A stretch of DNA of 64,000 nucleotides from Balanoglossus misakiensis (Eukaryota > Animalia > Hemichordata): the NCBI GenBank assembly GCA_040954595.2, contig CM082578.2:9099519-9163518 (forward strand). The letters run 5' to 3'. The translations under genes were made by a program, and so were the position numbers. Below the pieces are notes generated by a model that did no database searches, was not told the DNA's origin, and saw nothing but the letters and a program-made list of their open reading frames with translations. This document shows positions 45,006 through 55,084 of this stretch, one piece after another; positions within the stretch are counted from its first letter, which is position 1, and each line of letters starts with the position of its first letter.

Positions 45006-48000
45006 CTAATCTTCATCATTATCCGCGTCTTCATAGCTGGCATCACTGATGTTTCCATCTCTATCCGTATGGTCGGTAATAATATCCACTCCTGTGGTTC
45101 CAGGATCACCAATTTCATCAATGGGTTCGATGTAATCATCACAAACGAGCGATTTGTATTCAGACTCAACTACATTCTCTAAGTCTATACTGGCATAGTC
45201 CCCGTTTTCACTGATGTCTTCGTAAACATTATTGGCAGAATTCACTGTTGAATGAGCAAACAAAGTGAGTCAGTTGTTATTGTTATTGTTGTTGTTGTTG
45301 GTGGTGGTGGTGGTGGTGGTGGTGGGATGTAAGTGAGTGAGTGAGGGAGGGAGGGAGGGAGGGAGGGAGGGAGTGGTCGACACGGTGTACATTTATATTT
45401 TACAATCACATAGCTGACATTTTACGAACATTCGCGAGACAGTCACTACATGTACAAGTGTACAAGTATTTCGTATATACTACCATTCTTGTATATTTCT
45501 GTGTATCTGAAAAAAATATATAAGGTGGTCTGAAAGTTGTATCTCTGCGACGTGTTACCATAATGCTAACTATACAGAATACCACAAACCTCTCCTGATG
45601 ACTTCATTTTCCTGACGCAGTTCAGAGAGCTGGGTTTCCATCTTTTTTACTTGTCTCTTCTTGTCAGCAAACTTCCTTGTGAACTTAAACAAGATAACGA
45701 CAACCGCGGCTATGACACCTAAAACCACAAAAGCCGAAGGTATCCCAGCTGCAATTCCAACGTTTACAGCTTTAGCGGTGTCCTCGTCAGTTGGATACAT
45801 TAAGACACCCACAGAGACGTTAAGATTCCCGTGGTAGATCTACAAATTGAATGGACAGAGAAGAGTAACAGGTTCCTGCTGTTACGAAGGTACTACGAAT
45901 GCATAGAATTTAAATATCAGTGGTGGATGAACAATAAGGGTGTACGTCATTAACATAGCGTTAGCTGTAGTAGCCGCACACCTGGGTATTTTGAATATTA
46001 CGTAAGGGTTTTTGGTTTTTGACTCTCGGCAACGGCAGTCAAGTGGCGTGAGCCGACCAGAAAACAGACAAGTTGTACTCGGCCATGAGCGACGGGGACT
46101 GGAATATTGTAATCTACGTGGGAGCTCGGTGTTGAAGTTCAGCACGTCGGTATGTCCTGTTGGTTTGAATTCAGCGTTGCTCTCGAACTTAAAAGGCATG
46201 TCTACGCCAGCAACTGTAAGTTAAGTGAACCTGTTACTTTCTTCTGAGAGGACTTCAGGAAAGAACTGTGTGAGAAAGCAGCACGCCAGCGTGAACCATC
46301 GTCGGGTCGGTGCGGAGAACACACGGAACACTGAATTATCGCGTCCGCTCACCACGTGTGTAATATTACCGCGGAACTGATACAAGTTTCTTGAGGACAT
46401 TACAATATTTCAGTAAGAACCCTAGTAACATTTAAGTTTCAGTGCTTGTACTATGATATTAATTTTCTTCCTGTGACAAATAGATTCGCAGTGAAACATA
46501 TAACTTTGGGTGTACTGTGTATCATTGTTGTTGCTGTCTGGGTGTTTGTGTTGCGAGTTTTTGGTTCGTAACACTGCATAAAACACCAGTACATGTACAT
46601 GTATAAATCTTTGCCATGGCATGAAGAGAATCCATGACCCATTTGCCGCATTCAACTAGTTTGCTGCTAGGACCCGAGCATTTCAATTGACAAAGAGCGT
46701 ATTTACATGATAGTGTATTTCCCTCTAAACATGTTATGTCTACCTCAATGTCAAATTCATCAGTAGAACAGGGTTAATAGTCAACGGCATGCATTTGTCA
46801 CAGATACCAAGCATTAATAAACTGACCACGTTTCCTAACATCTACAGAAGGTATTTTGTTTAATGTTATGATAAAAAGAATAACGCAGGAAAACACGAGG
46901 GGTGCAGTTTTTAGTATGAAGATCTACTCACAGTAACTTCCATGCCTGCGGAGTCGCTGTATCCCCTCGGTTTTTCCGGTGGAGTGCACGTCAGCTGACC
47001 CCAGACAAGAGATGTCACTTCGCAGAATTGATCGCCAATCTTCACAATGACGTCCACCTCGTTCGATGCAAGGTTCAAATTTTCACCCTAAAGAAAGTCG
47101 AAGAGAATAATTGTTGAGCACAGCAGACAGAAACTGACTTGTTTCTGTGGGTGTTCGAAGTTAAATATCAAACTGCTAGCCAGAGTTCGTTATCAGCAAT
47201 TCTGTAGCATCATATAACTCATGTTCACATGTATACATCACTTTACTACAAGACATGGGGGAAAACCCATACTAAAAATTATATTACCGGAGAGACAGTC
47301 GGGGAATCTAATCTTATGTGAGAACGACCCCCTTTTAAAGTTGTCTAGCAAATTACAACGAACAAACATATATGCATGAACTTTAAAAATTAATTCCAGT
47401 CAATACTGAATGCACACTCACAGCAATGACAAGGGGTTCTTTGCCAGCACCGGCGTAAACTTTGACCCCTTCCTCAAACTCCACGTAATGTGGATCTGGG
47501 TAATAGAGAAACGGTTGGAGGCTGTCTCTCAGGTGGGTGGTGTTCGCCACGCTGTCCATAATGAAGCCAAAATCGCAGCTGTACGGCTCTTGCGCTGTGG
47601 GCTGGATACCACTTGCGGTGACGTCTGGTGTTAGACACTCCATGGCTTTGGCAGACCTCAAGGTGCATCGCTGAAATTCAAGTTAAATGGAAATTACAGG
47701 ACGGATACCCCGAGGCACTGTTACCACTCGTACATCACCACCTATCCATTCTCCAGTTATAATATAAGGGTTAGGTTAAGGTTAGGGTAAGTTTTCGCTG
47801 GACAAATAATTCGTTTAAAACAAGGGGAAATGCTCTTGTTAGGAACTGAGAGAGACATGAGAGACGGATACGTACTGCATCATAATGACTGCCTTCAATG
47901 TAGACCCTCATGAGCCTTGACTGCACGATGTCTAAATTGCTTCCAGTCACTTCTATTTCACTGCCACCACTGAAATGAAACCACCAAACTCTAATTCGAT

Positions 48001-54000: not shown

Positions 54001-55084
54001 CCCAGTCTTCATATTTTTGACGAATAGTTTTGATGGAATAAACACAAACTGCAGATTCATCTGTTGGTACATTTGAAGTTCCTTCTCCTTTAGCAAACGC
54101 AACCACCAGAACCGTCTTATCATCACCTGCATTATTTAATCCCAAATCTTCGGCGAGATCTGTGCCAGCCTGGATTGCATACGCTGATTGTGCTAAGTTG
54201 TATTCATTTCCGCTGTTGTCTCTACACACAATTGGAAGATCAATGTAGGTTTCTTTGTACTTCGCACATGTTTGACAGATTTGAACAATTCTGGTTTTTA
54301 ATGGACCATAATGTACGCCAACATCAGGCTGCACTGCTACATAATACATGAAACCATTGTTGGAAAACCCATACACATATTCTATGTTGAACTCTTTATT
54401 TTTTTCATGCAAAAAGTCACTGTCCCCTCCAATGACTGCAGTCTTCGATACAGTTTCAGATGACACAATATCAAAGGCATCTCCATCATCTATAGATGTC
54501 GGAAGGCGGCGGCTTGTCAGAGCATCCCATTGGGGATCTGTGTTCAATACATAACTCCAACCAACATACAAGACATCACTCTCTGGTCCTGGTCCAATGA
54601 GACCAAATGTGGAAGCACTGGGATTTGCTGATGCTACCTGCCTTGCAAAGAATTCCTTCTCAATATTTAGTGTCTGTTTATTCCTGGTTTGACATATTCC
54701 TTTGTAGACACTTCCACACGTGATAATCCAGTCATATCCCAGCCTTGTATCAATAACCAGGATTTTATTCACGTTGTCGGTTGTAACCAGTTCATCGCAC
54801 TCGTTAAAATCTGGCGGAAAACATTGAGGTTCTGAATTATCCTCCTTGGGTCCTGTCACTGCTTCAGTTTCCATCACCAACTCACTGGTCAACTTGTACA
54901 GCCTGTTGACAGAGCCAACATACAGGGCCCCAGTGCCCTTGTCTACAACCATTCTGTTCAAAGATATATCATCATTTCTTGGATCATTCGACTCCTTAAA
55001 AGTAGGGTAACTTTGACACTCGCAAAATGTAAGGAGGGCTAAGCACAGAATCACGGAAATGGTTACTTCCATGATGGCTGCCAT
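45006..55084 (-). CDS. Plexin-A-like type I receptor (signal peptide, Sema, 3 PSI, IPT/TIG repeats, TM) with short acidic Tyr-motif tail and no visible GAP domain; roughly 1,390 aa
   Basis: 20 coding exons (internal boundaries approximate): 55084-53909 (signal peptide [19 protein letters not shown]; Sema: [53 protein letters not shown]), 53438-53250, ~53002-52869, ~52655-52546 ([13 protein letters not shown]...DPYCGWC), ~52354-52226, ~52111-51951, ~51754-51546 (PSI), ~51393-51277, ~50898-50793, ~50418-50325, ~50049-49861 (PSI), ~49416-49267 ([23 protein letters not shown]), ~48997-48892, ~48779-48641 ([10 protein letters not shown]), ~48278-48107, ~47969-47876, ~47670-47422, ~47087-46932, 45839-45590 ([27 protein letters not shown]), 45244-45006 (tail, TAG stop). 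Confidence 0.9.
45880..46573 (+). mobile_element. Solo LTR (probably Ty3/Gypsy-type), copy 2, in plexin-like intron
   Basis: 694 bp, TGTTACGAA...TTCGTAACA ends, 4-bp TSD CTGC (45876-79 and 46574-77). Confidence 0.88.
48493..48538. repeat. (AAAC)n microsatellite
   Basis: Directly visible. Confidence 0.92.
53595..53718 (-). pseudogene. Partial duplicate of the plexin-like exon 53438-53250 (pseudo-exon)
   Basis: Encodes [23 protein letters not shown] versus [23 protein letters not shown]. The acceptor AG at the homologous position is absent and the 3' half of the exon is missing. Confidence 0.8.

Follow-up and report, generated by a model that had tools for sequence, protein, structure and literature searches.

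A candidate GAP-less plexin-A paralogue with an acidic tyrosine-motif tail in the acorn worm Balanoglossus misakiensis

Can a plexin gene be complete without the exons for its GTPase-activating protein (GAP) domain? The question is raised by a plexin-type receptor gene in a stretch of 64,000 nucleotides (nt) of the acorn worm Balanoglossus misakiensis (assembly GCA_040954595.2, contig CM082578.2, positions 9,099,519 to 9,163,518 of the forward strand), which we call the window. As modelled here, this gene is a real, intact GAP-less paralogue of plexin-A, and the GAP domain is absent from the 64-kb window. It differs from the class-A plexins (PLXNA1-4, Drosophila PlexA and the acorn-worm proteins P0053 and P0002) in being without a Ras/Rap-GAP domain or Ras-binding domain (RBD), in having lost the juxtamembrane signature, and in carrying an acidic tyrosine tail in place of the GAP. 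We consider it rather probable that the product is a plexin-A-type receptor whose GAP has been replaced by an acidic tail with tyrosine motifs, and which would signal by phosphotyrosine and SH2 docking.

Gene structure and the missing cytoplasmic domain

The gene model was built by hand at the DNA level, guided by homology, and all coordinates are given on the minus strand in window numbering. It consists of 20 exons running from the ATG at 55,084 down to 45,006, with GT-AG boundaries at all 19 introns (112-1,092 nt), and its coding sequence of 4,164 nt is translated into 1,387 amino acids (aa) with no internal stop. The features are the following.

53909..55084, minus strand: exon 1, aa 1-392, with a predicted signal peptide and the greater part of the Sema domain (Pfam Sema)
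53438-53250, 53002-52868 and 52654-52545, minus strand: exons 2-4, end of the Sema domain and start of PSI1 (in-frame GT/AG model, tblastn with P0053)
46932..52355, minus strand: exons 5-18, stalk PSI1-IPT1-PSI2-IPT2-PSI3-IPT3-IPT4-IPT5-IPT6 (Pfam PSI, TIG and TIG_plexin on single exons)
45590..45839, minus strand: exon 19, last strand of IPT6, transmembrane (TM) helix and juxtamembrane helix, with a phase-1 donor after 45,590
45770-45690, minus strand: TM helix, about aa 1249-1275 (hydropathy peak 2.9)
45689-45591, minus strand: juxtamembrane helix, about aa 1276-1308 (single-sequence structure prediction)
45006..45244, minus strand: terminal exon (20), 78-aa acidic tail with five tyrosines (splice and coding scores, composition)
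44556..44561, minus strand: candidate poly(A) signal AATAAA, seen as a sequence only, with a second hexamer, ATTAAA, at 44,670

Exon 1 shares 67% identity with protein P0001 of Ptychodera flava, and exons 5-18 share 73-78% with P0053, the canonical plexin of that species. All 50 ectodomain cysteines common to both canonical acorn-worm plexins are retained, and with 20 in-frame exons the plexin-A-like ectodomain named in a preliminary description of the locus is indeed intact. Among Protein Data Bank (PDB) matches to exon 1, plexin-A chains (E 4e-50 to 8e-45) rank above MET (5e-20) and plexin-B1 (2e-19). On the basis of this ranking the ectodomain is closer to plexin-A than to plexin-B, plexin-C or MET, and from homology its Sema domain would be expected to bind semaphorin.

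The searches for GAP, RBD and kinase exons covered the 64-kb window. Using four canonical cytoplasmic regions as tblastn queries, the best match for GAP/RBD exons had an E value of 0.89, and the kinase region of P0004, a kinase-bearing relative, gave 3.8 at best. A profile of 17 canonical cytoplasmic regions was run against the 2,909 six-frame open reading frames (ORFs) of the window and gave a best E value of 0.56. As controls, tblastn recovered a 32-aa ectodomain exon at 5e-9, and the profile recovered 16 of 17 pieces of 35 aa from a held-out plexin. The preliminary description had seen no such exons, and these results agree with it.

It had also spoken of a TM segment followed by a plexin-like juxtamembrane helix, and this was found to be half right. 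The two segments are predicted as one unbroken helix (predicted local distance difference test, pLDDT, 81; single sequence, no alignment) and the heptad pattern of the juxtamembrane helix is kept, but the C-terminal signature of canonical plexins is absent. In order to score this region, we used a leave-one-out profile over the last 20 positions, with an anchor motif that is present in 37 of 42 canonical plexins. Of these 37, 35 scored from +6.7 to +64.7, as against -30.7 for the window gene and -29 to -37 for four GAP-less relatives. The remaining two are negative because of an insertion at the profiled point; it falls exactly before the first GAP-side motif, as would be expected if a conserved intron sits there. 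Over the TM and juxtamembrane segments the canonical plexins of two acorn-worm genera share 57% identity, and the window gene shares 26-31% with either. The loss of the canonical juxtamembrane signature from exon 19 speaks against distant GAP exons.

Exon 19 ends at 45,590, where GTTTGT follows in phase 1, and the terminal exon begins at 45,244; it has 79 codons including the split codon, and its stop ends at 45,006. Scored by splice matrices derived from the sites of this gene itself, 45,244 is the best acceptor among the 134 AG sites from 45,545 to 43,000, at 10.2 bits. The coding score of the terminal exon is 35.8 bits, compared with a maximum of 15.7 among 195 upstream non-coding windows, and is the highest of 382 minus-strand frames below 45,600. 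Among 201 ORFs of at least 70 aa, no other than its acidic frame has a 70-residue stretch at 25% D+E. It is likely that the splice from 45,590 to 45,244 joins exon 19 to the acidic tail. The in-phase junction and 79-codon last exon of the preliminary description hold at the DNA level, and the AATAAA and convergent sulfotransferase stop that it mentioned were located at 44,561 and 44,474.

Downstream of the plexin gene lie four tandem cytosolic sulfotransferase genes on the plus strand (about 29,100-44,474), convergent with it; the facing frame stops at 44,474. Beyond them, a coding-like frame of 280 codons (26,688-27,527, minus strand) begins with Met-Gly on the same strand as the plexin gene. 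It probably represents exon 1 of the gene that follows, and it had no Pfam match at E 0.05 and no meaningful PDB match. The window sequence contains no N.

Some minor features of the locus were also noted. A consensus donor at about 55,717 and a plausible acceptor at 55,166 (minus strand) could delimit a non-coding 5' exon lying before the start codon. Within intron 1, positions 53,590-53,700 (minus strand) hold a relic derived from exon 2, whose 5' half it matches at 92% identity along 75 nt; it contains an insertion of 9 nt, lacks an AG acceptor at the corresponding site, and is apparently a trace of local duplication or unequal exchange. A dispersed repeat of 700 bp occurs in two copies of 96% identity in the same orientation, at 45,879-46,573, about 40 nt upstream of the TM-exon acceptor, and at 34,722-35,422, between two sulfotransferase genes.

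The acidic tail and its tyrosine motifs

The tail has 25 D/E and two K/R in 77 residues, and its D+E fraction of 0.32 compares with 0.28 and 0.22 in the tails of two GAP-less P. flava proteins, P0001 and P0007. No ordered structure was predicted for it (pLDDT 54), the single-sequence model being weak. The first ESM Atlas matches of the window and P0007 tails, among them an unnamed cluster, MUC1 fragments and SCIMP, score 0.84, below the 0.9 mark, and are leads that confirm no identity. The tyrosine motifs are as follows.

45224, minus strand: YEDI
45197, minus strand: YASI
45158, minus strand: YKSL
45134, minus strand: YIEP
45035, minus strand: YEDA
[quoted passage not shown]

Four of the five tyrosines have I, L or P at +3, which 30 of 5,000 shuffles equalled. 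In the P0001 tail this is true of eight of 11 tyrosines (1 of 5,000 shuffles), a value inflated by a YxxP unit that is tandemly repeated four times. We take YEDI to be of the type preferred by Src SH2 domains, and YxxP of the Nck/Crk type. A tyrosine with a hydrophobic residue at +3 is an endocytic pattern as well.

Both P. flava tails contain YxxL-x7-YxxL, and the second halves of these pairs coincide with that of the window in a multiple alignment. Under the definition Yxx[I/L]x(6-9)Yxx[L/I] (PMC9546547; papers given by PMC number are cited from excerpts), the window tail and both P. flava tails have the ITAM form, which is found in 288, 184 and 303 of 20,000 shuffles, respectively. A reading as an immunoreceptor tyrosine-based inhibition motif (ITIM) was dropped; the second half of the pair fits that pattern, but so do 1,114 of 5,000 shuffles, which is not above chance.

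Acorn-worm relatives and their ectodomains

Exon 1, used as a query, matched 51 proteins of 687-2,000 aa. Acorn worms supply the top five, and the P. flava genes are the nearest, though distinct. A membrane-proximal search, with 22 matches among 7,987 candidates scored, added no member to the group. The relatives have the following architectures.

P. flava P0053 (XP_070559693/4): GAP plexin, canonical
P. flava P0001 and P0007 (XP_070559695, XP_070559697): GAP-less, with long acidic tails
Glandiceps talaboti P0002 (XP_077977569): GAP plexin, canonical
G. talaboti P0004 (XP_077977579): kinase-bearing, best PDB match MET
G. talaboti P0003 (XP_077977587): GAP-less, its short tail closing with a tyrosine motif
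Saccoglossus kowalevskii P0054 (older model): TM, with a tyrosine motif at the end of its short tail

Accession numbers are consecutive within the P. flava set and close within the G. talaboti set. In order to compare ectodomains, each paralogue was aligned with the canonical plexin of its own species over the segments Sema, PSI1-IPT2, PSI3-IPT4, IPT5-6 and TM plus juxtamembrane, in this order.

P0001: 96, 95, 96, 94 and 27% identity
P0007: 93, 96, 94, 82 and 29%
P0004: 93, 98, 98, 88 and 34%
P0003: 89, 96, 65, 46 and 30%
The two canonical plexins with each other: 57, 71, 61, 72 and 57%

Within a species, identity is thus 89-98% from Sema to IPT2 and 27-34% in the TM plus juxtamembrane segment. 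Change-point tests (200 permutations each) placed a break from 92% to 49% after model position 897 in P0003 and from 95% to 70% after position 1132 in P0007, with a weak one from 96% to 88% in P0004; none was found in P0001 before the TM exon, nor in two cross-species controls. The preliminary description had missed both the ITAM-form tyrosine pair and this near-identity of ectodomains within species across GAP, kinase and tail paralogues.

A tree of the distal ectodomain (positions 190-890) was computed from 12 of 19 aligned rows; those left out are the rows resembling plexin-B, two outgroups with a kinase and a partial row from Saccoglossus. It sorts the proteins by species, with support of 95/97 for the window gene with P. 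flava and 91/85 for the G. talaboti group. Approximately unbiased (AU) tests, set after a rough tree had been seen, rejected a single clade of the four GAP-less tail proteins (p 1.9e-7) and a single clade of the two GAP plexins (p 4e-51). Over positions 900-1240 the P0003 branch measures 1.28, compared with 0.05 in the distal half; the G. talaboti grouping has support of 47/82 there, its monophyly being neither shown nor rejected.

In the P. flava and G. talaboti models, then, ectodomains are more alike within a species than between orthologues and tails are divergent. The same pattern is described for CD300A/CD300C, paired receptors homogenised by gene conversion, whose ectodomains are closer within a lineage than among orthologues and whose tails diverge (PMC12447643). 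The staggered breaks would fit gene conversion between old paralogues. Protein-level data are also compatible with repeated recent duplication followed by fast tail change, or with chimeric models.

Signalling, rival explanations and known systems

The gene likely arose as a duplicate of an acorn-worm plexin-A. It has an intact ectodomain and TM with no GAP or kinase exon in the window, a step seen in the sequence, and we strongly infer that capture of a new terminal exon took place at, or close to, the phase-1 intron that ancestrally preceded the GAP-coding exons. The GAP-less copy would coexist with a GAP plexin of near-identical ectodomain, probably through gene conversion, as is observed in the relatives and presumed for this genome. 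We propose that the receptor would bind the same semaphorin as the canonical plexin. A dimeric semaphorin would cluster the receptor, and a Src-family kinase, or a MET-type plexin-kinase paralogue where present, would then quite probably phosphorylate the tail, so that clustering would deliver two tyrosine tails in place of two GAP domains. Most speculatively, YxxI-x9-YxxL might recruit a tandem-SH2 kinase of the Syk/Shark kind and YEDI and YIEP single-SH2 proteins, a step that we hold to be possible but doubtful.

Dimeric semaphorin and plexin form 2:2 complexes via their Sema domains (PMC10084454), and activation of the plexin GAP follows dimerisation involving the juxtamembrane helix (PMC8011033). 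In ITAM receptors the pair is a target of Src kinases and, once phosphorylated, a docking site for Syk (PMC4605443); the SYK of amphioxus binds an ITAM receptor and phosphorylates it (PMC13344425). A complex prediction for the TM-juxtamembrane segments of the canonical and GAP-less P. flava proteins scored 0.02 and gave no verdict. Given the intact ectodomain and these precedents for semaphorin clustering, ITAM and Syk, we prefer phosphotyrosine signalling to a decoy function and to the other rivals discussed below. The Sema receptor with a phosphotyrosine-motif tail, as the preliminary description had it, is still the best reading and has relatives of the same build in P0001, P0007, P0003 and P0054; the signalling role that it assigned is kept here as a proposal. 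A wider suggestion, which we make tentatively, is that of a paired plexin-A array, in which one gene-converted, semaphorin-binding ectodomain would be coupled to Rap-GAP, MET-type kinase and ITAM-tail outputs. The window gene would be its ITAM member, a single-chain counterpart of plexin-A1/TREM2/DAP12 leading from a guidance cue to Syk-type activation.

Several observations weigh against the phosphotyrosine reading and the array. The sequences of the relatives come from automatic gene prediction, and such models can be chimeric where genes lie in tandem. A canonical plexin partner was not found in the 64-kb window, and the homology searches made returned no kinase-bearing paralogue from P. 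flava. The ITAM pattern was chosen, among several motif types, after the tails had been inspected. Under a stricter definition, YxxL/I x6-8 YxxL/I (PMC4605443), the window pair fails with its spacer of 9, and the P. flava tails (x7) pass. The Pfam ITAM family gave no match at E up to 10 for the four members tested. The pattern is common in long sequence: six-frame translation of the window contains it eight times in the strict and 18 times in the wide form, and of 37 canonical GAP regions three have the strict and 13 the wide one. There is no excess of I/L/P at +3 in the P0007 tail (four of 11 tyrosines, 874 of 5,000 shuffles). As for the splice junction, only one of the 19 donors is weaker than that at 45,590 (4.1 bits), a competing acceptor at 45,506 scores 9.3 bits against 10.2, and the synonymous-codon share of the terminal-exon coding score is neutral (0.7 bits), so that this score rests on amino-acid composition.

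The tails belong here too. BLASTP of the window tail with the P. flava tails gave E values of 0.8 and 2.2, local alignments were equalled by 2,350 and 2,547 of 3,000 shuffles, and global alignments had z scores of 0.3-2.1. A post hoc alignment anchored on the first 28 residues was equalled by four of 5,000 shuffles for P0001 and by 805 for P0007, and the two tails from P. flava, being closely related, make one observation, not two. When 7,991 candidates of 700-2,000 aa were searched with a profile built from the TM and tail stretches, the only matches were its own two members, which is weak evidence. Tail-to-tail orthology with P. flava was dropped, since a single post hoc anchored test is all that was passed. 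It is a fair statement that the window and P. flava tails appear to have composition and motif form in common, with homology between the species unestablished. As for orthologues with the same tail, for which the preliminary description suggested searching, GAP-less acorn-worm paralogues exist, but homology of the tails is unsupported by alignment.

We regard it as unlikely, yet worth weighing, that the protein does not signal and acts as a decoy or dominant-negative co-receptor, that is, as a semaphorin sink or as a partner of the canonical plexin that keeps two GAP domains from coming together, with the tail as spacer or sorting signal. Near-identity of the ectodomain to the canonical receptor in the relatives would be equally expected of a decoy, the juxtamembrane heptad is retained, and the tails, which vary from 31 to 338 residues past the juxtamembrane anchors, do not align significantly. 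A mere spacer sits less well with tyrosines in acidic contexts at ITAM-form spacing in two lineages, with the amplified YxxP unit of P0001, with a paralogue that acquired a MET-type kinase and so points to signalling outputs at the locus, or with the tyrosine-motif tails seen by eye in three GAP-less plexins of a sponge (excerpted from PMC6374515). It is much less probable still that the gene is GAP-less but has another 3' end, through the acceptor at 45,506 (a 33-residue tail) or donor read-through to a stop at 45,570, leaving the acidic frame unused or to a minor isoform. The weak donor and the close score of that acceptor speak for this, as do the very short tails of P0003 and P0054. Use of 45,506, however, needs an 83-nt intron, below the minimum of 112 among the 19 modelled, its product has a coding score of -6.1 compared with +35.8, and the acidic frame would remain unique of its kind among the 201 ORFs.

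The chance that the gene is a truncated duplicate drifting to a pseudogene, its ectodomain intact by recent copying and its tail exon fortuitous, seems to us a shade smaller again. The exon 2 relic and the young 700-bp repeat upstream of exon 19 do indicate a rearranging locus; yet exon 19, at its low identity to canonical plexins, has kept its frame, hydrophobic helix and heptads, and GAP-less paralogues are annotated in three other acorn-worm species. Least probable of all, in our estimate, is a canonical plexin-A whose GAP exons lie beyond the window, with over 45 kb of intron in between, or were split off by misassembly. It draws on the GAP searches having covered the window only. Against it are the lost pre-GAP signature, the 26-31% identity where canonical acorn-worm plexins share 57%, the shortness of the remaining introns, the four sulfotransferase genes and the same-strand frame at 27,527 that intervene, and the absence of N from the window.

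With phosphotyrosine signalling as the preferred reading, the gene may be compared with known systems. The architecture is not without precedent: Plexin-A1 to -A4 of the sponge Amphimedon queenslandica are described as having a 'truncated intracellular domain', with short tails that lack conserved domains (PMC6374515), and share with the window gene a plexin ectodomain followed by a short domain-less tail. In the supplement of that paper, the tails of A1, A3 and A4 (about 340, 117 and 110 aa) have by eye several tyrosine motifs, in acidic context in A3 and A4 and including YxxM forms in A1, with no ITAM-form pair and no plexin-like juxtamembrane helix; the excerpted text does not remark on these motifs. 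A plexin ectodomain with a tyrosine tail thus has a precedent in sequence. The paper places the Amphimedon plexins in a sponge clade, so that their origin would be independent of the acorn-worm gene. By the same source, plexin domain structure is largely conserved, the exceptions being the sponge truncations and the Met-LP kinases, and hemichordates are not listed in its species table as excerpted.

Met-LP, a complete plexin ectodomain with a tyrosine kinase, has arisen twice from plexins, and a starfish Met-LP adjoins a plexin gene (PMC6374515). Like MET/RON, it resembles the window gene as a plexin ectodomain rewired to phosphotyrosine signalling; the window gene differs in having no kinase, so that it could only be a substrate or docking partner. 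P0004 of G. talaboti is a Met-LP-type protein of the same ectodomain lineage as the window gene, and its plexin-A ectodomain and MET-type kinase make it a candidate for a further, recent Met-LP origin. The Alr receptors of Hydractinia likewise have ITAM-form motifs in unalignable tails (PMC9546547, on ITAM/ITIM receptors). Compared with paired immune receptors, the ectodomain here is plexin instead of Ig, the partner output is GAP or kinase and not ITIM, and an immune role would here be conjectural. Mammalian plexin-A1 reaches the ITAM adaptor DAP12 through TREM2 (PMC4605443, a review), which again couples a class-A plexin ectodomain to ITAM output, but by a separate adaptor bridged by TREM2, where the window gene would carry the ITAM in the same chain.

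In the open-licence literature, subscription papers being outside its scope, we found no hemichordate GAP-less or ITAM-bearing plexin and no plexin ectodomain homogenisation described. What is new is the origin in a bilaterian, the motif of ITAM form and the pattern of paired receptors, the GAP-less short-tail plexin itself being already known. If the proposal is true, the deuterostome plexin-A locus swaps out its GAP repeatedly while the ligand-binding half is held constant, and it would offer a living model for the origin of MET-like kinases from plexins. As a natural chimera, it would also allow one to ask if clustering by semaphorin is enough to fire an ITAM, and it would suggest that the plexin-to-ITAM link of mammalian myeloid cells was reached independently.

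Two further proteins with other outputs were noted. P0035 (XP_055347124), from a tardigrade, an ecdysozoan, has a plexin ectodomain and a tyrosine kinase domain, its C-terminal end appearing to be fused to an unrelated gene; in the excerpt of PMC6374515, Met and Met-LP were not found in ecdysozoans. P0044 (1,106 aa) combines a plexin-like Sema domain and a TM with a cytoplasmic TIR domain, a Sema receptor with an immune-type output.

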